IMG/VR virus record: IMGVR_UViG_3300046678_000974
Span: 12,409 to 76,408 of that record
Length of the DNA: 64,000 bases
Direction: 5' to 3' (one strand)
From: a virus
Taxonomy: Duplodnaviria > Caudoviricetes
How positions within the stretch are numbered: the first letter of the stretch is position 1; each line of letters opens with the position of its first letter. Shown here one piece after another: positions 1,774-60,345 of the stretch. The position numbers were made by a program, and so were the translations under genes. The notes below the pieces were generated by a model. It worked only from the letters and a program-made list of their open reading frames with translations. It had not been told where the DNA came from and made no database searches.

Positions 1774-1780
1774 ATAATCG

Positions 1781-2260
1781 ATGCCCCTCGTAACATCCCA
1801 ACCCGATCCGATTCTGGTGATCACTGGACCATCGGGTAGTATCACCTTCGGTGGCTTTGAAATCCCAGAGTTCATTCATGTGGGTGGGCCATTTCGGGCA
1901 ATCGTTCATAAGCAGCCGGGTGGCACAAGACAGATCGATTCGATGGGACCTGATCCTGATCCGATCAAATGGGATGGAATATTCCTCTCGGCTGATGGCT
2001 ATACACGCGCCCGTGCTTTGTATGCCATGTATGAAGCTGGTGATAAGGTCACAGTGAAATGGACTGGTTGGTCGCGGGATTGTGTAATCACTCACTTCAC
2101 GTTACGTTATAAAGCAAATAATTATGTTGAATATGCCATCGAATTGACCGAAGTGACTGTCATTCCAACCGGCGTGTTGATCGGTGTTGATCAATCGACT
2201 CTTCAAGGATTGCTGAAAGGTGCAAGCAATGTACCAAGCGGTGGTGGTGGTCTGGGATGA
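1781..2260 (+). CDS. Tail tube initiator-like protein (P2 gpU/Mu DNA-circulation N-terminal type)
   Basis: ITFGGFEIPE...HKQPGGTRQIDSMGPDPDPIKWDGIF...VTVKW pattern; position between tape measure and hub. Confidence 0.6.
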   Translation: MPLVTSQPDPILVITGPSGSITFGGFEIPEFIHVGGPFRAIVHKQPGGTRQIDSMGPDPDPIKWDGIFLSADGYTRARALYAMYEAGDKVTVKWTGWSRDCVITHFTLRYKANNYVEYAIELTEVTVIPTGVLIGVDQSTLQGLLKGASNVPSGGGGLG

Positions 2261-3498
2261 GTGGTAGTGCCAATGATTTTGCTCAACATAGCGATGTTTG
2301 GCGGCCTCGGTATCGTGTGCTCATCGGCAAAGGTGGTGTGCGGGCGCCGGGTGATGTAGCTGATATCGATGTTACTGCGATCACCCTATCGGTGATGACA
2401 CAAAAACAGAACTGGTATCAGGCTGATCGCCATAAAATTGTTTTGAGTTTGTGGGAGCAGCGTCAGTTTGGCTATTTCTTCTGGGCTGATTTCATCTCAA
2501 TGTCGGTACTTGTGGAGATAGGTTTCGAGAAAAACTTGACAACGGAAATGACTGAAGTGTTTCGTGGTTTTGTTGATAAAATAGCCATTGACGCAGTACG
2601 TGGTACGGTGACCTTGACAGGTCGTAATACCTTTCTGTTACTGACTGATGGTAAGGAAATCAGCTTCGATACCAACGCCACTATCAAAGAGATCATTGAA
2701 CGGGTGGCTAAGGAAACCAAAATCGAAGTCGATACCAGTCAAGTGAAAAAAGTTGACCTCGGTACAATGAAGGGTCGCTTCTGGCCAACCAATGAAGAAA
2801 AGGTGGATGGGCGGGATGGTCATAATGCTACGATGAACCCCAATGATATCTACTCGCAAATCTCGCGGGAGTACGGTGTGTTCTATTATGAAGATGGGGG
2901 CACCGTGTTTTTCAAGGACAATGATCTAGAGGGCACCGTTGGGTTTGTTGCGGTGGCACCTCAAGGCATCTATGAGGAACCGAGTGTTACTAAGCTGACA
3001 GCATCCAATTGTACCTCATTGGAGATTGAGCATAATCTGAATATCAGTCAATGGGACTGGTATGTGAATGCCACCAACTATGATCATGCTGGCGAAGCAG
3101 ACGGCAATCGCGCCCTGTATCCTGAAGGTAACAAAGATTCGCCTTTTGGGCGAGCGCATTATGCGCAGTCAGCTAATCGCCATCACGATGACAATGTAAA
3201 ACTGGCAAAATCGCAATTTGAAGAGTTCACGCTGCACGAATGGAGTCTGACAGCCAAATGTTCAGGCCCACAGATACTTGGATTAAAACTGAATAATCTG
3301 CTCAACATCGAAGGTACTGGTACCATCATTGATGGAGATTATGTGATTGATTCAATTGAACACCAACTTGATTTTCAACGTGGCTATGTTGGTACCGTGA
3401 AGGGTCGCTGGGGGGCTGGCATTGCTGGTCAGACTGGCGCGGGATTATCTGGGCCATCTGGCATTGGTGCTGATGTTCCTGGTGGAGCACCAACATAA
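2257..3498 (+). CDS. Baseplate hub / late control D-like protein
   Basis: 413 aa; VFRGFVDKIAIDAVRGTVTLTGR and C-terminal GDYVIDSIEHQLDFQRGY motifs; synteny. Confidence 0.7.
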   Translation: MSGSANDFAQHSDVWRPRYRVLIGKGGVRAPGDVADIDVTAITLSVMTQKQNWYQADRHKIVLSLWEQRQFGYFFWADFISMSVLVEIGFEKNLTTEMTEVFRGFVDKIAIDAVRGTVTLTGRNTFLLLTDGKEISFDTNATIKEIIERVAKETKIEVDTSQVKKVDLGTMKGRFWPTNEEKVDGRDGHNATMNPNDIYSQISREYGVFYYEDGGTVFFKDNDLEGTVGFVAVAPQGIYEEPSVTKLTASNCTSLEIEHNLNISQWDWYVNATNYDHAGEADGNRALYPEGNKDSPFGRAHYAQSANRHHDDNVKLAKSQFEEFTLHEWSLTAKCSGPQILGLKLNNLLNIEGTGTIIDGDYVIDSIEHQLDFQRGYVGTVKGRWGAGIAGQTGAGLSGPSGIGADVPGGAPT

Positions 3499-4217
3499 TG
3501 GCATTCGTTTCCGATCAGATCATCAATATGGTCAAACTTCATTCCAGTAAGATCAATGAATCTTATGGCTCGGTGAAGTATGCTCGTCTGAAAGAATATG
3601 ATCCTGAACATTGTATCGCTAAAGTTGCATGGTACGATCCCAATGAAGACAATTATGAAAAACTGATCTCTGGGTGGCTGCCGATCATTGTACCATTCAT
3701 CGGTAAAGGTGATGATACGCAAGCTGATGGTGGCGAGGCATGGGGATTTGTTGCACCGCCTAATATCGGCCAGCCAGTGGTTGTGCTTAGCCAACATGGT
3801 GATTTCAATAATGGTTTGATCATCGGTGGTAGCTATTCGAGCAAATCACCGGTACCTAAAGTTGATGGCAAAGCGACTGAGGATGGTGAGTTCCTCATCA
3901 TGCACAAAAAAGGTAGCTACATCAAACTTTGGAATGATGGCGATATCTCTATATTCACAAAGCATGATTTGAACTTACACATTGATCATAATGGTAATGT
4001 CCATATCCTCGGTGATCTCAATGCAGCCATAGATGGCCAAGTGGCAGTAGCAGGCGGCAAATCAGTGTTAATCTCAGCCAAATCACAAATCGCTCTGGAT
4101 GCTCCAGTGGTCAATGTCAGCAAAACACTCACCGTTGGTAATGGAGCAACCGGACAATTTGAGACTAACGGAACTGTCGTGACCGTGGAGAACGGCATCG
4201 TGACCAATATAATCTAG
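3498..4217 (+). CDS. Baseplate central spike (gpV-like)
   Basis: OB-fold-like N-terminus (SGWLP...WGFVAPPNIGQPVVVLSQHGDFNNGLIIGG) followed by beta-helix repeats; coupled to the hub gene. Confidence 0.8.
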   Translation: MAFVSDQIINMVKLHSSKINESYGSVKYARLKEYDPEHCIAKVAWYDPNEDNYEKLISGWLPIIVPFIGKGDDTQADGGEAWGFVAPPNIGQPVVVLSQHGDFNNGLIIGGSYSSKSPVPKVDGKATEDGEFLIMHKKGSYIKLWNDGDISIFTKHDLNLHIDHNGNVHILGDLNAAIDGQVAVAGGKSVLISAKSQIALDAPVVNVSKTLTVGNGATGQFETNGTVVTVENGIVTNII

Positions 4218-4227
4218 GATAAGAACT

Positions 4228-4785
4228 ATGCCTCTCATTCAAGCCGATCAAACAGCCATTGCAAACGTCAGTGGCGGCCTCTGTAACCTGCATCTCGATG
4301 CAAGTTTCGGCCTATCAGCAATCCTTAATCTCGTCCATTTTCAGAACTTTCATAGTGCCATCAGCAATGCTACATGCTGTGATCTAGTCACATTGATCCC
4401 ACAATCACTGAATACCATCTTGTCTGAGATCAATGGCATTCTAGCCAATATCGATTCAATTGTACCAATGACCGGTTTACTCCATGTCCCCACCAACTTG
4501 ATTGGTGTGATCAAATGGATCGCCAGTTTCGTTCAAATATTCATTGGACCATTCCTTGTAGCATTGCTAAAGAAAATTGCAATGTTAGGTGGTGTCATTG
4601 GTGAAGTAACTACATTGGCCGGTGCGATTGAACATGCTCTATCCGATCTGGGTGGATGCGCCGAATCCTTCTTGCCGAAGGTGAGTCTGAATGTTGCGCC
4701 TCTCAATGTCACCCTACCGGGCGGACAGACCATCGGACATAATGGCTTCAATCTTAACATCGCAGGAACACAGGCAACAACCTAA
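4228..4785 (+). CDS. Hypothetical protein (hydrophobic, tail region)
   Basis: 185-aa ORF continuing the operon. Confidence 0.55.
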   Translation: MPLIQADQTAIANVSGGLCNLHLDASFGLSAILNLVHFQNFHSAISNATCCDLVTLIPQSLNTILSEINGILANIDSIVPMTGLLHVPTNLIGVIKWIASFVQIFIGPFLVALLKKIAMLGGVIGEVTTLAGAIEHALSDLGGCAESFLPKVSLNVAPLNVTLPGGQTIGHNGFNLNIAGTQATT

Positions 4786-8412: not shown

Positions 8413-9690
8413 TTACCGGAGCAACATGGGGCGTTGTTTCCATGGCTTGAGTATTGGGCCATATGATACGCTGGTATACGTGATTCGCACCTGACCCCTT
8501 CCGCCTGCCGAACCGTTATTAGTAGTTGTTGCTGCACCTCCGCCACCTCCTGGTGCACCTGCGGCACCCGGACTGACCGCTGCGGTTGCTCCACCCCCAC
8601 CTTCGACATTGGATACACCAGCCGCACCGCCAGAACCGGCATCGCCAGTCCCACCAGTACCGGTTGTGGCAGTTGTACCGGCCCCATCCTTACCTGCCGC
8701 ACCGCCACCACCACCTCCAGCGGTACGGGTCGCTCCTCCACCACCAGCATTCTTGGCGACATTACCGATGGATGTCGCAGTTGCTCCACCAACGCCTCCG
8801 GTAACTCCCGATGTCGCGCCTCCGCCTCTTGCCAAAACGTAACAAGCACTCGACTTCCAGAAGCTAGCACTACCGGCAGCTTCAAATTGAGTACCGGCGA
8901 TGCGGAAAGTAATGTCTATTGCCGCGCCATTCGTCACAGCAAATCCCATGCTTATGTTGACATTGGCATTTGTGGTTGTTGCGCCGGTGCATGAGGGTGT
9001 GCGAGTAAGTGTTGTGGTCCAAGTAAAATTGGCAAATCCAATACCAGCGAAACTAACACCATCAATGAACTGAAGAAATGGAGTAGCAATATTAGTCAAG
9101 CCTGTGCCAACATTGTCTCGATAGCAAGTGTAAAAGCTCTCGAAATAAGTTGTTGACGTCGCTATACCGCTGGTAAGACCGATTGCAAAGAATAGATTAA
9201 CGTTACCGCTGGCTCCCGGTGTTCCGTTAACACGGAGATCGACATAGGGGAACCCGCTATTCAAATCAGTACCAAATCCAACGACTGATGTAGTCAATCC
9301 AGCAGGATTACCGCTATATGACCAACCAGTCGGTAGGGTACCAGGAGTACCGACAACTGCACCGGTGTTGATTGAGTTTGGAAAGAGATTGATATTATTG
9401 GTACTGAAGCTAGTATCGGTACCAGCCGTGCTATTCGCCGCACCTGTACCAGCCGATCCAGTATTCTGAGTGAAACTTATTCCGCTTGCGACATCATGGG
9501 GCGTGACCGTGTACAAACTCTTGGCCCATGCCCCACCCGCACCTCCGGCCCGGAATGATGTGCTCGATCCACTACCGCCCGATCCGGCTCCCCAACATTC
9601 CACAGTCAAAACAGTACCGACTGGGGCATCTGATGGAACTGTCCAAGTCTGTGGCGAACCGGATGTTGTTGTGAGTGTGACGACTGGCAT
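8413..9690 (-). CDS. Glycine-rich fibre protein with inserted carbohydrate-binding-like domain
   Basis: TWTVP...TVECWGAGSGGSG N-terminus, Gly-rich C-terminus ending GRGQVRITY; internal NLFPNS...IAGTQFEAG segment. Confidence 0.65.
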   Translation of the reverse strand: MPVVTLTTTSGSPQTWTVPSDAPVGTVLTVECWGAGSGGSGSSTSFRAGGAGGAWAKSLYTVTPHDVASGISFTQNTGSAGTGAANSTAGTDTSFSTNNINLFPNSINTGAVVGTPGTLPTGWSYSGNPAGLTTSVVGFGTDLNSGFPYVDLRVNGTPGASGNVNLFFAIGLTSGIATSTTYFESFYTCYRDNVGTGLTNIATPFLQFIDGVSFAGIGFANFTWTTTLTRTPSCTGATTTNANVNISMGFAVTNGAAIDITFRIAGTQFEAAGSASFWKSSACYVLARGGGATSGVTGGVGGATATSIGNVAKNAGGGGATRTAGGGGGGAAGKDGAGTTATTGTGGTGDAGSGGAAGVSNVEGGGGATAAVSPGAAGAPGGGGGAATTTNNGSAGGRGQVRITYTSVSYGPILKPWKQRPMLLR

Positions 9691-9732: not shown

Positions 9733-10173
9733 GTGAATATGGCTATGAAGATAAGCAAAAACGGCATCAATTTTATTCAAACCTTCGAGGGTGTTCGATA
9801 TGAAGCCTATCAGGATTCAATTGGCGTTTGGACTATAGGCTATGGCCATACGGCTGATGTCTATGAGGGTATGAGCATTACTCCCGAACAAGCCACACAA
9901 TATCTGGCTGATGATCTCTGCAAGTTTGAAGGCTATGTTGATAGCTATGTCACGGTACCATTGACACAGAACCAGTTTGATGCACTCGTCTCGTTTTGCT
10001 ATAATCTTGGCGGAGGCAACTTACACAAATCTGATGTATTGTCGTTGCTGAACTCTGGTCAATATGATCAAGCGGCAGATGCCATTTTGGAATGGGATCA
10101 CGCTGGTGGTAGGGAACTGCCCGGACTTACTCGGCGTCGCAGAGCCGAACGCGATCTCTTTTTAGCGCAATAG
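9733..10173 (+). CDS. Phage lysozyme/endolysin (GH24)
   Basis: FEGVRYEAYQDSIGVWTIGYGHT catalytic E-D-T motif; LTQNQFDALVSFCYNLG; GLTRRRRAERDLF. Confidence 0.95.
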   Translation: MNMAMKISKNGINFIQTFEGVRYEAYQDSIGVWTIGYGHTADVYEGMSITPEQATQYLADDLCKFEGYVDSYVTVPLTQNQFDALVSFCYNLGGGNLHKSDVLSLLNSGQYDQAADAILEWDHAGGRELPGLTRRRRAERDLFLAQ

Positions 10174-10176
10174 TAG

Positions 10177-10207
10177 TAACACCAGCCCAATTATGGGACT
10201 GGTGTTA
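10177..10207. terminator. Hairpin between convergent genes
   Basis: taacaccag-ccca...tggg-a-ctggtgtta stem. Confidence 0.55.
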
Positions 10208-11783
10208 GGGCTACCCAATTCGTACCATCGAACTGATACCATAGATCAACTGCTGTGGTATTAGTGTTCAATGTACCGGCGCCAGCACCGCCATTGACAA
10301 TAGTCAATGTGCCAGCCAATCCAGCATTGCCTGAGCGGCGAATATGCACTGTACTGCCGGTACGTGGTAATTGTGTGCTGGCTGTGACACTTATGCGAGC
10401 GCCCAAAGTTAAAGTGAATGAGGTGATACTCGATGGCACAACGATGGTCGCATGTTCGTGTTGGCTCCAATGCGTGTAGGTTGCTGACACATTAAGCTTA
10501 GCGCGTTCACATACTGAATTGGCTGCACCATGCACGAATCGGTTGAACATCTCCGGCGTGGCATTACTTGCCATCGGCATATGATCGTCCAAGAATATAT
10601 GCCCTTGGATATTGCCACCCGGATTATCAAACGAAATGAACTTGTTGACCTCGAAGTTTGGCACATAGTCCGGTGATGCGGCACCAATCAATCCCAATAG
10701 ACCAAAGTTTGAGGTAATTTCACCGGTCGCTGCTAAACATGTGATGTTCAAATTGTTAATGATTACTGTTGATGAGCCGCCTTGATAATCGCCGTAGAGA
10801 TATGGCGTGCCGGTTAATGCTGCGGACAGAATGATCGGATCGACAATCTTAAAGCCGTTAATGGTAAAAGCTGATGCTGCTCCTGAAAAGAACGAAGCCT
10901 GTGAGCCAGTCAGTTTTATTTGTTCCATATGCAAAGCATTAATCGTAACGGCTCGGGCGCCAGCACCACCAAATAAAATTGCTACGTTACATGCACCATT
11001 AGCGAGTGTAAGTCCATCGAAGAATAACTCACCAACCGTACCTGGAAAGTTAATGAAGTTAGCAATGGCGGGATTACCAGAACTACCGCCTTGTATAACT
11101 AGATTTTGAAATTGGCTGGGCGGAATAGCGGCGGCTTCTTGAGGATTGAAGTTCAATCCAATATTCTGAAATCCAATAGCACTGATGTCATGGAATCTGT
11201 TGCCTGATATATTGGTCGCAGCAACATCGACAGCATTATATGCTGGATTGGTTGCCATTGGCATATGAATATCACCAACTATGCTATTCACCAAATAACC
11301 AATATTCAATGCCTTGGCAGAGGTGAATCCTGTCTGTGCTGCACCATACGAAAGATTTAACCCCTCGATCTTCACGCCACTGCTTGCTGTCGCACCGGTG
11401 GTATCACCAATAGTAAGAATGGGACAAGAGGGAGTCGTAGCGTAAAACTGTATAATCTGCGATCCATAGCGCGAGCCAATTAGGGTCAATCCATAATTAC
11501 CAACACCTTGTGCTGGAATACTCAGACCAGTTGAGGAATTGATCTCATAGACGCCCGGTTCAATAACAAAGAACTTACCATGAGATGCAGCATAGGTGAT
11601 GGCATTTTGTAAGGCTGTCGCATTAGTTTGTCGGACACCGGTTGTTTGACCTGCACCCATAACCAACCCAGAAGCTAGATGGGCAAACACCGAACCGCGA
11701 ATAATTGCTGGGGCGCCAAGTCCCGAAGCGTTGAGAACATCATCTTGGCCACCACCGGGAACTTGTTGATAGTTGAATGTCAT
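10191..11783 (-). CDS. Beta-helix (pectate lyase-like) tailspike/depolymerase
   Basis: NATALQNAITYAA...FVIEPGVYEI...LIGS pectate_lyase_3-like start; beta-helix periodicity; ends YQFDGTNW. Confidence 0.6.
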   Translation of the reverse strand: MTFNYQQVPGGGQDDVLNASGLGAPAIIRGSVFAHLASGLVMGAGQTTGVRQTNATALQNAITYAASHGKFFVIEPGVYEINSSTGLSIPAQGVGNYGLTLIGSRYGSQIIQFYATTPSCPILTIGDTTGATASSGVKIEGLNLSYGAAQTGFTSAKALNIGYLVNSIVGDIHMPMATNPAYNAVDVAATNISGNRFHDISAIGFQNIGLNFNPQEAAAIPPSQFQNLVIQGGSSGNPAIANFINFPGTVGELFFDGLTLANGACNVAILFGGAGARAVTINALHMEQIKLTGSQASFFSGAASAFTINGFKIVDPIILSAALTGTPYLYGDYQGGSSTVIINNLNITCLAATGEITSNFGLLGLIGAASPDYVPNFEVNKFISFDNPGGNIQGHIFLDDHMPMASNATPEMFNRFVHGAANSVCERAKLNVSATYTHWSQHEHATIVVPSSITSFTLTLGARISVTASTQLPRTGSTVHIRRSGNAGLAGTLTIVNGGAGAGTLNTNTTAVDLWYQFDGTNWVALTPVP

Positions 11784-54761: not shown

Positions 54762-54980
54762 ATGATGCAATGTCTGGAATATACTGGATCGGCCAGCAAT
54801 TGGCCGAGGATATTTGCATGGTGTGAAGATCAGTTCGAGGGTGAGTTTCGGGCGTATTCTGCTATGAACAGTCTATTGTTGTTCATCCATGATGAGATGG
54901 ATATATTCAAGTTCACGGTTGCTTGGGGTGCTCATCCGCCGAGTGATATTTCGAAATATCATCGCCCGTATCGGGTTTGA
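54762..54980 (+). CDS. Hypothetical protein
   Basis: Small ORF. Confidence 0.45.
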   Translation: MMQCLEYTGSASNWPRIFAWCEDQFEGEFRAYSAMNSLLLFIHDEMDIFKFTVAWGAHPPSDISKYHRPYRV

Positions 54981-55305
54981 GTTGACAGCGACATAGTTTG
55001 GTATGTTCTTCGAGTGCGGACAAGCGGCGTTCGAGGCTTTCCCAGAAGTCCCGTGGGCGGAAGTCGCGTTTGATATTTCCCAGTTCGTTTTCATGTCCCT
55101 GCACCTGTAGCCGAAGCGTTTGTAGAATGCCGGTACCATGGGTTTCGATTTCGGTGATTCTGGCGGAATTGACTTCGATTTGTCGCAGACTGGCGCCGAC
55201 ATAGAGTACTGAGCCGCCTATACCGAATAACAGACCGACTACGGCGACGACAGTCGCTTTACCTACATCAACATGGAAGTTCGAGCCATTACCGTTATCG
55301 CTCAT
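54913..55305 (-). CDS. Single-TM coiled-coil membrane protein
   Basis: MSDNG...ATVVAVVGLLFGIGGSVLYVG TM segment. Confidence 0.55.
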   Translation of the reverse strand: MSDNGNGSNFHVDVGKATVVAVVGLLFGIGGSVLYVGASLRQIEVNSARITEIETHGTGILQTLRLQVQGHENELGNIKRDFRPRDFWESLERRLSALEEHTKLCRCQLKPDTGDDISKYHSADEHPKQP

Positions 55306-55460
55306 CGAATATTTACCTTGACACCCCAGAACCACTTGATATATTGACATCCTCTTCAACAAGGTAAAAGCAATGGAACTGCGGTATAAGGTAAGGTTCG
55401 AGGCGTTCAGCGATTTCTGTCGGTTTCTCAACTACTGTCAGGCGATCCCGTTACCGGTGA

Positions 55461-55718
55461 GTGGCTTCTTTGCCGATAGTATCAACAGGAGTTACAGTGA
55501 TGGAAGACCCCTATACTGACGAAGAGCTAGCTCCGTACGATGCTGAGGGTGCGATGATAGACCTTGAATTGAACATTGCCATAAAGATGCATAGCGACAT
55601 TTTGCGTGAGATGAAGGCATATGTCAAAAGCGATTCCTTGGCGCGGGTCAGCGGCATCGTTGATGCATTACAGATGATATTGCGGGAGGAGTATCTCTGT
55701 ATGGAAAGGCTTAGTTGA
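55461..55718 (+). CDS. Hypothetical protein
   Basis: Small ORF. Confidence 0.45.
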   Translation: MASLPIVSTGVTVMEDPYTDEELAPYDAEGAMIDLELNIAIKMHSDILREMKAYVKSDSLARVSGIVDALQMILREEYLCMERLS

Positions 55719-55782
55719 TGGATACATGGTGGGCGGTATGGTTATCAGCCTTGGTATTGCTGATTGTGGTGACGATATTCTA

Positions 55783-55894
55783 TTGACAGGTTGATAGGGA
55801 TTTGATATAAGGGGATTGTACCTCTCGGCAGGGTACATTTCTTGTGGTGAGAAGAACGGCGGAGGTTAGCGACTGCAACCCCGCCGTTTTCTTT
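55783..55894 (+). ncRNA. Candidate ~80-nt small RNA
   Basis: TTGACA-17-TATAAG promoter; hairpin tgtacc..gggtaca; terminator aacggcgg..ccgccgttttcttt; no ORF. Confidence 0.5.
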
Positions 55895-55902
55895 ATCTGG
55901 TA

Positions 55903-56136
55903 TTAGGTATCATCTTTTTGTGCAAGCAGGACGTCTTTGACCTGTGAACTGCGCGATGATCCGAAATAAAAGCCTGTTACGGCGCCGATGCCTGATCCGA
56001 CGACCAGACCGGCGATGCTATTCATAATAGCTGCATCGCCTCTCCAGAACACACCGAGCACGGTACCTGCGACGATGATCAGGATGATGATCGCGACGAT
56101 AGATTGTGGTGAAAGCAACGAATCGGTATGGATCAC
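55903..56136 (-). CDS. Holin-like two-TM protein
   Basis: IVAIIILIIVAGTVLGVFW and IAGLVVGSGIGAVTGFYFGSSRSSQVKD; GTG start assumed. Confidence 0.7.
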   Translation of the reverse strand: MIHTDSLLSPQSIVAIIILIIVAGTVLGVFWRGDAAIMNSIAGLVVGSGIGAVTGFYFGSSRSSQVKDVLLAQKDDT

Positions 56137-56155
56137 GAGTTCTGGTCGGAAATGG

Positions 56156-56542
56156 TCATTCGTCTTTGAGTAGTTTATCGAATTGCGCTTCGAGATCATC
56201 CATTTTGGTCTCGATGTCATGCAGGGTGACATCGTCATCGAAGATGGCATGATCCATATCTTCGATTTCAGAGAGTTCGTCTTCTAGATGATTCCATGCG
56301 GCTCGCCATTCTGCCTTGCGCAGATGATAGGCGATATAGGCTTCGACCTTCTCCATCGTTACGACGGCATGACCCGGTCGATTGCGGTTCATAAAGAAGG
56401 CGTCATGTAGGAAGTAGGCGATCTCGGTGCGCTCATTTTCGCTGGCATCACGGAGTATCTGACCCAACCTGATCTCTTGATTGATCTGTGCGATCACGTT
56501 GTTGGTCAGGTCGGTGATCAGGTCGTGGGTTGTGTTATCCAT
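56156..56542 (-). CDS. Hypothetical protein
   Basis: 128 aa, coiled-coil C-terminus. Confidence 0.55.
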   Translation of the reverse strand: MDNTTHDLITDLTNNVIAQINQEIRLGQILRDASENERTEIAYFLHDAFFMNRNRPGHAVVTMEKVEAYIAYHLRKAEWRAAWNHLEDELSEIEDMDHAIFDDDVTLHDIETKMDDLEAQFDKLLKDE

Positions 56543-56621: not shown

Positions 56622-56882
56622 ATGGCGACAACAGATGGCACTGAGATGGCCGTGAATCCTTTTCATGAGCGGGTGGGCAAGCTATTGGGTGAGTTTGTCG
56701 GCAAGCCGGTGACCAGCGGCTTGGTCAATGAACTGACGTCACGGGTGAGCAAACAATCGGGGGTGACCTCGGTGATCAGTGAACAGACTGGCAGTGGCAT
56801 CAAGTTGATGGTCAACCATGTTGAGGGGGTATTTCATTGGCTGATCAATGAGACGGTGACCCTGATCAAACATAAAATCTGA
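56622..56882 (+). CDS. Hypothetical protein
   Basis: AAGGAG RBS. Confidence 0.55.
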   Translation: MATTDGTEMAVNPFHERVGKLLGEFVGKPVTSGLVNELTSRVSKQSGVTSVISEQTGSGIKLMVNHVEGVFHWLINETVTLIKHKI

Positions 56883-57037
56883 TGAAGATCGATATTGATC
56901 CTGACAAATATGCGAAGTATAAGATGCTGTTGAGACCAATTGGTGTATTTGCATTACCACCATCTGATTTCACTGATCATTTGCTGACGCATGTATTGCT
57001 AATTTTGGAAAATACGAAGCCGCGCACCGATGACTGA
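56882..57037 (+). CDS. Hypothetical protein (51 aa)
   Basis: TGATG coupling; MKIDIDPDKY... Confidence 0.45.
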   Translation: MKIDIDPDKYAKYKMLLRPIGVFALPPSDFTDHLLTHVLLILENTKPRTDD

Positions 57038-57119
57038 TTGCCAGCAGGCATCACCGAATAGGGCTTGACAGGTTGATCTCTTTAATTTACATATATTTGT
57101 GTATATCTGGAGAGTAAGC

Positions 57120-57308
57120 ATGCCGGTAGACAGGGGAGAACGAGCGAAAATCGCGATGTTGTGTGAGTTGGTTGCGCAATTGAAGGAGTTCAACGCCAAG
57201 TTGGAAGTGTCTATTGCGAGGCTGTATTCTGATATTGCCCCTACTTCCCCAGATGGCTCTCCGAGCATTTTTTCGGTTCCCTCCGACGAGGTAGACGAGG
57301 AAGAGTGA
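57120..57308 (+). CDS. Hypothetical protein
   Basis: TTGACA-17-TACATA promoter at 57065 and GGAG RBS. Confidence 0.5.
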   Translation: MPVDRGERAKIAMLCELVAQLKEFNAKLEVSIARLYSDIAPTSPDGSPSIFSVPSDEVDEEE

Positions 57309-57348
57309 GCTTGATCGGTGGCCTTGCGGGCCGCCGCAAGCTTTTTTG

Positions 57349-57654
57349 TTATGCGGCGTCGGTAGGATGAGGCCAGAGACGATAGATGCGGACGAAGAGT
57401 CCATTGATTTGTTGCAGATCGTGTTTGGTGGCTGCCATATTTTGTGCATTAGGGGCATTATCGAGACAGCAGGCGCTGTGTTTGAGAAGACCGGCGAGTT
57501 CGTGTAACTCGGTGATCAATTCCAAGAGAACTTGATTATTTGTTGACGGCACTATAGTAGCCACCGATTCGATTGGCGGCATCTTGTAGGGATTTGATAA
57601 GTTTGCTGCGTTCTGGTTCGTTTGGTATGTCATGATCTGAGAGCCAACTGACAT
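57349..57654 (-). CDS. Hypothetical protein (start uncertain)
   Basis: Overlaps the upstream gene's 3' end. Confidence 0.35.
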   Translation of the reverse strand: MSVGSQIMTYQTNQNAANLSNPYKMPPIESVATIVPSTNNQVLLELITELHELAGLLKHSACCLDNAPNAQNMAATKHDLQQINGLFVRIYRLWPHPTDAA

Positions 57655-58195
57655 GCAGCATGCCGATCACCTGATTGGACAGGTCATTTATCGGCACAAA
57701 GAGGCCGACCTTGGTACCGCGTCGCATGGTGATATCTTTGAGGGTGCCATTGCGCAGGTCCTTGGTTTCGATCCAGACGGCATGCTGTGAGACCATTTCT
57801 GGTAGTAGTTGGGCGAAGGCGCTGGCTGGTAGATTGGCGACTTCTTCTTGATTGGCGGAGACACCGGGGGAGGTAATGATGGTTTCGACTGAGACGAAGA
57901 AGAGGCTATTATTTCCGACATCATGGACGCTATTGTGGAAACGAGCGATACTAATGCGGTTGGCATTGAACTGGCTCAGGAAGTCATTGAGCATTGCGTC
58001 GATAACGGTATAGGTAGCGACGGTTTTCTTGAACTTGGTATAGCTGCCGACGTAGGCTTCACCGAACTTTGATGCGTAGGAACCGGTGAACATAATAGCG
58101 CCATAGCCGATAACGCCGAGAAGTACGAGGGTGATGACGAACGGGACGTGTTGCCGCATCCACTCTGCGAGGGTTGGGATGTCGCGAAGTTCCAT
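57536..58195 (-). CDS. Single-TM protein with GAF-like domain (T4 holin T-like architecture)
   Basis: TM aa ~19-36; ANRISIARFHNS...GLFVPINDLSNQVIGMLHVSW GAF-like strands; 219 aa. Confidence 0.5.
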   Translation of the reverse strand: MELRDIPTLAEWMRQHVPFVITLVLLGVIGYGAIMFTGSYASKFGEAYVGSYTKFKKTVATYTVIDAMLNDFLSQFNANRISIARFHNSVHDVGNNSLFFVSVETIITSPGVSANQEEVANLPASAFAQLLPEMVSQHAVWIETKDLRNGTLKDITMRRGTKVGLFVPINDLSNQVIGMLHVSWLSDHDIPNEPERSKLIKSLQDAANRIGGYYSAVNK

Positions 58196-58213
58196 ACCTC
58201 TAGTTATCTCAAG

Positions 58214-58834
58214 TTATCTATGGATCGTGATCAAACACCCTGCGACGAGGGTGACGACCATACCGAACAGGGCTGCTTGGCCATAGCGTTGGGCCATATG
58301 CTCATTAGTGATGTACACGGTGACCGCTTTCAATTGGATGCTATCGAGGGAGACTCGGATACTATCCATGAGATTTTTACCGAGATGTTTTAGTACTTCG
58401 CCACTGGCAGCTTGTAGACCTGCGTTATTTCTCACATCGATAGTGTATTGCAGTTCTTGTAGTTTACGAGTGATCAGTTCATTGGTTGTGGAGACGTGTT
58501 CGATTTCTCCGACGGGTAAGGCGGCATCGGTAAGGATTTGCATATTGGTTTCGATATGGGTGAGTGCCTCATGATAAGGGGCAAGATAGCCTATATCGCC
58601 GGTGATGATATAGCCACGTTGGCCGGTTTCGGCATTGAGCAGAGTGACCATTAGAGCATGGGCGGCATTTTCAGCGGATTGGGCTTGATCGATTTTTTGT
58701 ATGATTGCGCTGAATTGCCAGCAGGCGGCGACGGTCATGATCAAGCTGATAACAAAGATCACGGAGAAAAACATACGCATGAGATATTTATATGTTTTGT
58801 GTCGTACTAGATAACGTGATTGATATGGGTTCAT
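58214..58834 (-). CDS. Stand-alone CHASE3 sensor-domain membrane protein
   Basis: TM1, LLNAETGQRGYIITGDIGYLAPY, GKNLMDSIR, TM2, then stop. Confidence 0.85.
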   Translation of the reverse strand: MNPYQSRYLVRHKTYKYLMRMFFSVIFVISLIMTVAACWQFSAIIQKIDQAQSAENAAHALMVTLLNAETGQRGYIITGDIGYLAPYHEALTHIETNMQILTDAALPVGEIEHVSTTNELITRKLQELQYTIDVRNNAGLQAASGEVLKHLGKNLMDSIRVSLDSIQLKAVTVYITNEHMAQRYGQAALFGMVVTLVAGCLITIHR

Positions 58835-60345
58835 TGGGTTCGCACGTTAGTTGAGGTTGCTGGTGAATTGCTGCCTTTTTGTGGTGATTGGCCAGCTTGG
58901 GCCAATTTGAGTTGGTTGGCTAGGAGTTTTTCCTGATCTTGTTCGATTTCGCCTAATTCGGCATCGATATCTTCATATTTGAAGAACTTGTTAAGTTGGC
59001 GCAGGGCTTCTTTCTTCGACATAAGACCGCCTTGTACGAGTGCAACGATTGTTGCACTTTCTGTTTGTTGGTCGAATGGAGTAGCGGGGAACCAATCTGG
59101 GTAGATCAATTCGAATGATACATTGGTCGCAGACATATTGGTACGCTTGCCTTTGACGATGATCGGTACTTTGTTGGCGATCATCAGCATCATATTGAGT
59201 AGTTGGCGGATGCCAATCTCGCAATAGCTTTCTCGCAGGGTAGAAGCTAGTTGTACTGTCGGCAGATAGAGGAATCTTTGTACCACGGAGCTATGTGAAG
59301 TGGCGATCTTTGATGGATCGGCTCGATTGGAATGGATTGAGTGCAGGGCTTCGTCTTTTAGCTCTTTGACGGTATCGATGATGGCGTGTGCGGCATCACC
59401 GGTGATTTCGAGTACTTTGGCATCGCCTTCGACCCCCAGAACCAATGCATTACCTTCGGCGCGTACGAAATCAGCGACTTGGCTTGGATTGCGAACTTTG
59501 AAGACCATCAAGGGGTCGGATGCGTATTTCAAAGCGGCATCGGAACGACTCATTAGGTAATCTATTTGGACTGCGTTTTCGATGGCTGGTTCGAAGGTGC
59601 AAAGACCATCTATTTGGTTTCCGCCGGGTAGATTTTTGATCCAGACGAATGGTACGAAGCCCAAATTGTGTTGAACTGAGCGAGTTGGGTCGATTCTGGG
59701 GCGATAATTTTCATCATGGGTGACTTCCCATGGTTCGAACCACGTTTCTGCGTCATTATCCCAGATGCGTTGGAACCAAAACCACTTATTCATGGCTAGT
59801 TTGTCGATTTGGTAGCCTGCATTGAGTAAATCGCGACCTTGTAGTTTGTATTTTTCTGTTAATTTGATGAGTTTTTGTGGATCGAGAGGATCGAATTGTG
59901 GTGTTAGGAAGGTGGTCCAATGCGCAAGTGGGAAGAATCGGTTATTGAGGACGCGGATTTGGATAGCGACGGAACCGATGGCACCTTTATAGGCGGCATC
60001 TTGCATCAGGTAGACTAGATGGCTGTCTTGGATGACATCTTCGCACCATTGTTGGACGTTTTGGTCTTCGGTGAGGATACTTGGGAAGCGATCTTCACCA
60101 AACATGAAGGATGTGGACTCTTCGACCACGGATCGCATCAAGTTCAGTCCAGTATTGGTAGATGGGGCGCGATTGATCTCTTCGATGTACCGAACTGCTG
60201 ATTTTCCGACGTATTGCTGATAGTAGCCGTACTCGAAGCAGTCGTAGAGGGTACCCTCTAGGATTTTCTGGTAGATGAAGAGGTCATAGTACCGATCAGG
60301 CAGTTGTTTGTCCTTAACGGTTTTCTCTCGAATGATGCTATACAT
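58831..60345 (-). CDS. Portal protein
   Basis: 504 aa; HNLGFVPFVW, QIDYLMSR...LKYASDPLMVF, SKKEAL; SPP1 gp6-like layout. Confidence 0.8.
   Translation of the reverse strand: MYSIIREKTVKDKQLPDRYYDLFIYQKILEGTLYDCFEYGYYQQYVGKSAVRYIEEINRAPSTNTGLNLMRSVVEESTSFMFGEDRFPSILTEDQNVQQWCEDVIQDSHLVYLMQDAAYKGAIGSVAIQIRVLNNRFFPLAHWTTFLTPQFDPLDPQKLIKLTEKYKLQGRDLLNAGYQIDKLAMNKWFWFQRIWDNDAETWFEPWEVTHDENYRPRIDPTRSVQHNLGFVPFVWIKNLPGGNQIDGLCTFEPAIENAVQIDYLMSRSDAALKYASDPLMVFKVRNPSQVADFVRAEGNALVLGVEGDAKVLEITGDAAHAIIDTVKELKDEALHSIHSNRADPSKIATSHSSVVQRFLYLPTVQLASTLRESYCEIGIRQLLNMMLMIANKVPIIVKGKRTNMSATNVSFELIYPDWFPATPFDQQTESATIVALVQGGLMSKKEALRQLNKFFKYEDIDAELGEIEQDQEKLLANQLKLAQAGQSPQKGSNSPATSTNVRTQ

Follow-up and report, generated by a model that had tools for sequence, protein, structure and literature searches.

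The window analysed here, a stretch of 64,000 nucleotides, corresponds to bases 12409-76408 of the 76,408-bp IMG/VR virus record IMGVR_UViG_3300046678_000974. Directly downstream of the portal gene it carries two adjacent minus-strand genes (57536-58834), which encode a stand-alone CHASE3 sensor protein and a protein that combines a single transmembrane (TM) helix with a GAF domain, in the following called the TM-GAF protein. The record has direct terminal repeats, is rated 100% complete and encodes a tail sheath, a baseplate wedge, tail fibres, a large terminase, a portal and a GH24 endolysin, and therefore is the complete genome of a contractile-tailed phage. The portal gene (58831..60345, minus strand, 504 aa; phrog_64 at E 1.2e-22) opens the transcription unit that holds the pair, and its product shares 65% identity with the portal protein encoded on L009, a related phage contig. 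The start codon of the CHASE3 gene and the stop codon of the portal gene overlap in an ATGA, and the TM-GAF gene begins 18 nt past the CHASE3 stop codon; both genes are co-transcribed with the portal gene, which implies that they are expressed late. At its distal end, this unit meets convergent small plus-strand genes (56622..57308) at a GC-rich hairpin (57316..57340), recognized by a terminator scan and by reading of the sequence, which has a T-run on the plus strand only. The original prediction for this DNA, made by a model that saw the letters and their open reading frames (ORFs), had placed the two genes at these coordinates downstream of the portal, and both are real there. It had also assigned a GAGG ribosome-binding site to the TM-GAF gene; the motif is present, but its end lies only 1 nt before the ATG.

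The CHASE3 gene (58214..58834, minus strand) encodes a TM-CHASE3-TM protein of 206 aa, or of 186 aa if translation begins at M21, the alternative start used by public gene calls. Residues 46-167 of the 206-aa protein match the Pfam family CHASE3 (PF05227) with E 4.5e-25 and 88.6 bits at a cut-off of 28. The AlphaFold2 (AF2) model, with a mean predicted local distance difference test score (pLDDT) of 91.3, is all-helical (helices 3-78, 81-108, 111-138 and 151-204), and both TM helices run on into the first and last helices of the bundle. Its top match in the PDB is the CHASE3 sensor domain 3VA9, with a TM-score by target of 0.88 and a root-mean-square deviation (rmsd) of 1.8 Å. The protein probably represents a periplasmic four-helix-bundle sensor held between two TM helices, an orientation that we infer from the positively charged N-terminus. 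It stops two residues past the second TM helix, where only 'HR' follows, and thus has no cytoplasmic output domain, in agreement with the orphan CHASE3 protein lacking a kinase or cyclase that had been described from the sequence. Searches for HATPase_c and GGDEF gave no match in any of the six frames of the whole 76,408-bp genome, while the signalling domain of methyl-accepting chemotaxis proteins (MCPs) was not searched separately. Therefore, no broken kinase is hidden at the locus, and the idea of a frameshift concealing one, which had been named as a way in which the prediction might fail, was ruled out.

The protein belongs to a tight family of stand-alone CHASE3 homologues, which are ~190 aa long with a range of about 185-215 aa. 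Two of the short homologues (P0181 and P0182) continue after the second TM helix with a collagen-like Gly-X-Y stretch (PF01391). A tblastn search of 50,697 phage records with the CHASE3 protein returned one weak match, and the two CHASE3 loci from IMG/VR that were read (L002 and L003) encode full-length kinase or cyclase proteins. Of the CHASE3 loci from GTDB genomes, the best 80 comprise 78 that encode long proteins and two that are truncated by contig ends.

The downstream gene (57536..58195, minus strand) encodes the TM-GAF protein of 219 aa, which, judged from its AF2 model, its fold and its family profile, may act as a class III (T-type) holin or as a lysis effector. A 16-residue N-terminal tail is followed by one hydrophobic helix at residues ~17-37 and by the GAF domain at residues ~56-219, and in the AF2 model (pLDDT 95.9) the TM helix passes unbroken into helix 1 of the GAF domain. 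The domain superimposes on 3W2Z with a VIA Z-score of 17.7 and an rmsd of 2.2 Å over 143 residues, and the best 50 VIA entries are all GAF domains, with Z-scores from 17.7 to 15.1; the best Foldseek E-value was 2e-7. Judged from the model, the domain is clearly a canonical GAF domain, so that the single TM helix and the GAF-like domain foreseen from the sequence were both recovered, even though the protein's own sequence gave no match to a Pfam GAF family. A tblastn search of the same 50,697 phage records with the TM-GAF protein found no match.

The similarity to holin T of phage T4 that the original prediction had pointed out was likewise recovered. Both proteins have one TM helix and a GAF fold and are of nearly equal length (219 and 218 aa), and Foldseek, one of the comparisons suggested as a check, returned the periplasmic domain of T (6PXE_D, 6PX4_T and 6PSK_T) with E-values of 5e-6 to 9e-6. 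The TM-scores by target were 0.66-0.72 for these three structures and 0.68-0.72 for 6PXE and 6PX4. A PDB profile search found T4 holin T at E 0.005, and when the profile hidden Markov model (HMM) of the family, A2, was run over the T4 genome, gene t was the sole match. In hhalign, A2 aligned with a profile of seven T4/T5-type holins at 90.3% probability and E 1.5e-6, with 124 columns in register, whereas cellular GAF domains, used as control, reached 10.7% against the same holin profile. Against the single T4 T sequence, the alignment of the family was weak (55% over 33 columns). In the ESM Atlas, two of 30 feature matches were clusters named 'Holin family protein', with PF11031 on 45% of their members and a score of 0.97, and some of the neighbours in BFVD bear the annotation class III holin or T holin.

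The TM-GAF family comprises 134 representatives after clustering at 50% identity, nearly all of them 190-280 aa long. PF01590 was matched by 7/62 members, at best with E 8e-8, and PF11031 by a single one of the 62 (E 8.4e-4), while the A2 HMM also hits the GAF domains of large sensor proteins from cells, with E-values down to 3e-17. According to the profile comparisons, the family seems to stand between T holins and canonical GAF domains and to connect the two, with the 219-aa protein on the GAF-like side. The family is almost exclusively viral: the nearest ESM Atlas clusters listed are all 93-100% viral and contain proteins of 191-229 aa, with viral clusters of 55-167 members, and the proteins that match best in BFVD are full-length TM-GAF proteins of phages (198-245 aa). 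A scan for the TM-GAF pattern found no instance in 185,579 GTDB species genomes and none in IMG/VR, and a single locus (L008) in JGI metagenomes; one cyanobacterial genome carries a family member of 256 aa. Members are also present in cultured phages. In Klebsiella phage RaK2, two adjacent genes, ORF145w (L112:2183-2827) and ORF146w (L112:2840-3562), encode proteins of ~214-240 aa annotated as hypothetical; ORF146w matches the TM-GAF HMM with 29.5 bits and ORF145w does not, although the latter equals in length a RaK2 protein of 214 aa that BFVD returned as a fold match. The label 'structural protein' of gp232 of Salmonella phage Arash was given little weight because the proteome of this phage lists 116 proteins, metabolic enzymes included (PMC10585845).

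The distribution of cysteines across the family bears on the compartment in which the GAF domain resides. At the alignment columns of residues 139 and 167, both cysteines are present in 41 of 132 sequences, only the first in none, only the second in three and neither in 88, counted without regard to kinship. The second cysteine precedes a nearly invariant proline, and this 'C-P' motif aligns with C175-P176 of T4 T; all seven T homologues that were fetched contain exactly two cysteines. In T, the cysteine pair forms a periplasmic disulfide. The strict covariation in the TM-GAF family suggests that the pair is a structural disulfide and that the GAF domain would be extracytoplasmic.

A periplasmic setting is also shared by both types of proteins that are encoded directly upstream of TM-GAF genes, since each of them carries a periplasmic domain. 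One type is the CHASE3 protein described here. Co-occurrence of homologues of both proteins was deduced from contigs with exactly the same bp count and the same source in the two lists of homologues. By this measure, five contigs appear to hold both homologues: P0171 (CHASE3) with P0031 (TM-GAF) on 74,689 bp and P0174 with P0002 on 1,522 bp, both from JGI, and P0181 with P0032 on 2,593 bp, P0010 with P0033 on 6,685 bp and P0014 with P0165 on 4,189 bp, all from Logan. These contigs take in the three closest TM-GAF homologues (52-39% identity), and the two genes together would account for 83% of the 1,522-bp contig. A lack of co-conservation, which would have spoken against the prediction, thus did not come to light. 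For ten more distant TM-GAF clusters, the same comparison of bp counts gave no contig in common with the CHASE3 list, so that the pairing seems confined to the closest TM-GAF subclade. We conclude that the two genes form an accessory cassette that is conserved within one subclade. The other type of upstream partner is encoded on the JGI soil contig L008, where the gene for a TM-GAF homologue with 37% identity is translationally coupled to an NMT1_3 gene (gene pair L008:271-1161 and L008:1163-1678), the product of which is a secreted solute-binding protein of the TAXI type in place of CHASE3. This coupling suggests that the periplasmic sensor partners of TM-GAF proteins are interchangeable, with either CHASE3 or a solute-binding protein in this role.

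A function of the pair in lysis has to be seen in the context of the other lysis genes of the phage. A soluble GH24 endolysin of 146 aa (9733..10173, plus strand; PF00959, E 4.1e-50) without a signal-arrest-release or signal sequence is encoded by a lone plus-strand gene between minus-strand tail-fibre-like genes (8413..9690 and 10191..11783). None of the ORFs neighbouring the endolysin gene encodes a small membrane protein that could be its holin, and since the endolysin is soluble, a hole-forming holin must be encoded elsewhere in the genome, as it is in T4. Searches of the genome for Amidase_2, SLT, Peptidase_M15_4 and GH108 were negative. Among cultured phages, Nonlabens phage P12024S encodes a TM-GAF family member (P12024S_12, 126 bits) between a tail-fibre gene and a Peptidase_M15_3 endolysin gene, directly upstream of the latter, and the T homologues of T5 and KIT04 occupy the same position upstream of endolysin genes.

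Taken together, these data lead us to favour, tentatively and with a probability of about 45%, that the CHASE3 and TM-GAF proteins constitute a co-conserved, late-expressed membrane pair for lysis control that resembles T and RI of T4, with CHASE3 as the periplasmic regulator. The 219-aa protein would insert with its N-terminus inside and its C-terminus outside, according to the plan of class III holins, with a short cytoplasmic tail, one TM helix and a periplasmic GAF domain. It would build up in the inner membrane and finally permeabilize it, whereby the soluble GH24 endolysin could reach the cell wall. The CHASE3 protein, anchored by two TM helices in the same membrane, would display its four-helix-bundle sensor in the periplasm and might bind the GAF domain and/or the TM helix, thereby either keeping the TM-GAF protein inactive or activating it. 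An extracytoplasmic ligand sensed by CHASE3 would then shift the balance and set the timing of lysis. In this model, we infer the topology, the hole formation, the contact between CHASE3 and GAF, the direction of regulation and the ligand. The lysis-timing module that had been proposed from the sequence is partly supported, namely in its domain assignments, in the resemblance to T and in the co-conservation of the two genes, but the resemblance weakens precisely in the subfamily to which the protein belongs.

Several observations argue against a T-like lysis pair, and this weakness is the first of them. When only the 16 closest TM-GAF members were compared with the T profile, the probability fell to 13.8%, whereas distant members reached 94.4%, so that the link to T holins appears to be carried mainly by the more distant sequences. 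The 219-aa protein itself did not match PF11031 (Phage_holin_T) in Pfam at E-values up to 1. Neither this protein nor the CHASE3-linked subfamily contains cysteines, and the case for a disulfide extends to them by homology only. Counts of positive charges on the two sides of the TM helix are ambiguous, with 46, 46 and 15 across the family and 2 versus 1 for close relatives. The family profile is also far nearer to GAF domains of cellular signalling proteins (99.4%, E 1e-21 in hhalign) than to T, and such GAF domains are typically cytoplasmic.

This proximity to the GAF domains of large cellular sensors would equally fit a split signalling or decoy module, the second of the functions named in the original prediction, in which the TM-GAF protein would have its N-terminus outside and a cytoplasmic GAF domain. 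CHASE3 would then form heterodimers with CHASE3 kinases or cyclases of the host, or signal through TM contacts to the GAF domain, which would bind a host protein or a small molecule. An order of CHASE3 followed by GAF is known from host sensor kinases, for example CfcA (PMC6849547), the unbroken passage of the TM helix into GAF helix 1 is found in signalling helices as well, and a cytoplasmic C-terminus is compatible with the charge counts. However, the searches for HATPase_c and GGDEF left the phage without an output domain, the family is almost entirely viral with an empty pattern scan of cellular genomes, and none of the 80 best cellular CHASE3 loci in GTDB genomes has a TM-GAF gene as neighbour. 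Furthermore, the covarying cysteine pair suggests an oxidizing compartment, and in L008 a secreted protein takes the place of CHASE3 as partner. Considering both sides, we regard a signalling or decoy function as quite improbable.

The evidence for the pairing has its own limits, as co-occurrence was deduced indirectly from matching contig sizes and not seen directly, and the nearest phage relative found, the 41%-complete fragment L009, encodes portal, scaffold and capsid proteins consecutively, without the pair. The absence of the pair at this position in L009 and its location at the end of an operon beside a terminator hairpin would suit an accessory cassette of another kind, namely a moron that encodes a membrane toxin and its inhibitor, similar to SpoIISA/SpoIISB, and serves superinfection exclusion, abortive infection or competition between phages. 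SpoIISA is indeed a membrane-attached GAF toxin that is neutralized by a GAF-binding partner (PMC3057836), but its GAF domain is cytoplasmic and preceded by three TM helices, where the 219-aa protein has one. Neither the CHASE3 nor the TM-GAF protein matched a PADLOC defence-system model at E-values up to 0.01, and the late expression implied by the shared transcription unit with the portal, in a phage whose genome has direct terminal repeats, also speaks against such a toxin, which we consider very improbable.

The pair might also modulate lysis without making the hole. On the minus strand, a small Gly-rich protein with two hydrophobic segments in its ORF translation (55903..56250; phrog_9990 of unknown function, E 1.2e-5) is encoded beside a second protein (54913..55431) whose ORF translation shows a TM helix at the N-terminus and a coiled coil; this second protein is i-spanin-like by architecture only and gave no Pfam or PHROG match. 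The 2-TM protein could be the actual holin, and the CHASE3/TM-GAF pair would then act as antiholin or modulator of timing. In P12024S, the endolysin gene is followed by a further TM protein with a weak match to GTA_holin_3TM (E 0.005, below cut-off), so that its TM-GAF protein, too, could be a regulator instead of the hole-former. On the other hand, neither the 2-TM nor the i-spanin-like protein matches a known holin or spanin family, and in T4- and T5-type phages it is, according to the annotations, the T-like protein itself that functions as holin. We therefore judge a purely regulatory function of the pair to be unlikely. The two genes are part of a minus-strand cluster (54913-56542) that encodes in addition a protein of 128 aa; none of the three products falls into a named family, and judged from the sequences, the cluster may be a holin/spanin cassette.

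Returning to the T-like lysis-control pair, a more specific version of it can be formulated as a ligand-gated lysis switch. The CHASE3 receptor would bind directly to the GAF domain that a T-type holin exposes in the periplasm, so that a signal from the environment or the host envelope, and not superinfecting DNA, would time lysis. The holins of T4 and T5 would have evolved from the wider TM-GAF family, in which periplasmic sensors serve as interchangeable partners. As a whole, this extended scheme is possible but doubtful. The elements of the favoured model itself have precedents: T and RI of T4 form a periplasmic complex of holin and antiholin (PMC11413866, PMC8385771), and the fold matches of the CHASE3 model include four-helix-bundle sensors in complex with periplasmic protein partners (LytS-XylFII, TorS-TorT and QseE-QseG).

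If the favoured interpretation is true, a holin-like protein is coupled to a genuine ligand-sensing domain of bacteria, which would represent a second, mechanistically different route to signal-dependent timing of lysis. Lysis inhibition, the textbook case of a phage that senses its environment, was worked out mainly in T-even phages, where T acts together with RI and RIII, and has also been reported from Vibrio phage ICP1 and coliphage N4. It would further be the first function for a phage-encoded CHASE3 domain; in a literature search on CHASE3 and phage, the titles and the beginnings of the abstracts mentioned no phage-encoded CHASE3 protein. A search on holin, GAF domain and phage yielded nothing on T-like TM-GAF families beyond SpoIISA. 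Finally, a sizeable uncharacterized viral family of ~200-250 aa proteins would receive a working annotation, and the holins of T4 and T5 would be placed within the GAF superfamily through an intermediate family.

The surroundings of the pair differ from those in L009 in several respects. In L009, the scaffold and major capsid genes come right after the portal gene, all on one strand, whereas in the phage analysed here the portal gene lies on the opposite strand and ~5 kb away from the scaffold and capsid genes (genome bases 1779-3654, locus L090), across the terminal repeat. The slot downstream of the portal that scaffold and capsid genes fill in L009 is taken by the CHASE3/TM-GAF pair, which together with the position and strand of the portal gene indicates that the head module was inverted or rearranged relative to L009. 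A 2OG-Fe(II) oxygenase gene (L090:3706-4332, genome bases 3706-4332; phrog_61, E 1.4e-20) directly follows the major capsid gene and is conserved in L009. The plus-strand block that converges on the pair (window positions 56622-57308) consists of three small ORFs of 86, 51 and 69 aa, the first two of which are joined by ATGA, and terminates at the hairpin at 57316-57340, a strong intrinsic terminator.

Among known systems, T and RI of T4 are the closest counterparts in our comparison. T (PF11031; 6PSK, 6PX4 and 6PXE) shares with the TM-GAF protein a short N-terminal tail, one TM helix and a C-terminal α/β GAF-like domain of ~160 aa, and the two families appear to be linked by remote homology at the profile level, with the 'C-P' motif in common. 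In both phages the respective gene lies away from the endolysin gene, and a second membrane-tethered, helical periplasmic protein is a candidate regulator, RI in T4 and CHASE3 here. Unlike T, the 219-aa protein is missed by the PF11031 model and its GAF domain is still recognizably canonical, and the conserved cysteine pair of T (175/207) has no equivalent in the CHASE3-linked subfamily. RI is thought to sense superinfection. It is a small protein encoded elsewhere in the genome, in contrast to the 2-TM four-helix-bundle sensor encoded immediately upstream of the TM-GAF gene. The CHASE3 domains of kinases, cyclases and chemoreceptors have the same topology as the phage protein, with a periplasmic bundle between two TM helices (E 4.5e-25, TM-score 0.88), but the phage protein lacks the HAMP, kinase, cyclase or MCP module of its cellular relatives.

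A precedent for such a sensor without catalytic output is GlnX of Corynebacterium and Mycobacterium, a CHASE3-like four-helix-bundle membrane protein without an output domain that relays signals from GlnH to PknG (PMC9769921). Like the function proposed for the phage CHASE3 protein, signalling by GlnX proceeds via a separate partner protein, but GlnX is a cellular protein unconnected with lysis, and it is built from four TM helices and two bundles, with ~110 N-terminal residues in the cytoplasm. With SpoIISA-SpoIISB of Bacillus subtilis, the pair shares a membrane-attached GAF domain, and SpoIISA exerts a lethal, holin-like action under the control of its partner (PMC3057836). By architecture, the level at which the two were compared, SpoIISA differs from the TM-GAF protein in its three TM helices, its cytoplasmic GAF domain and its small, disordered antitoxin. 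Compared with these systems, the two phage genes would represent a lysis-control pair of the T/RI type with a different, bona fide ligand-sensing partner, the functional steps of which are proposed here.

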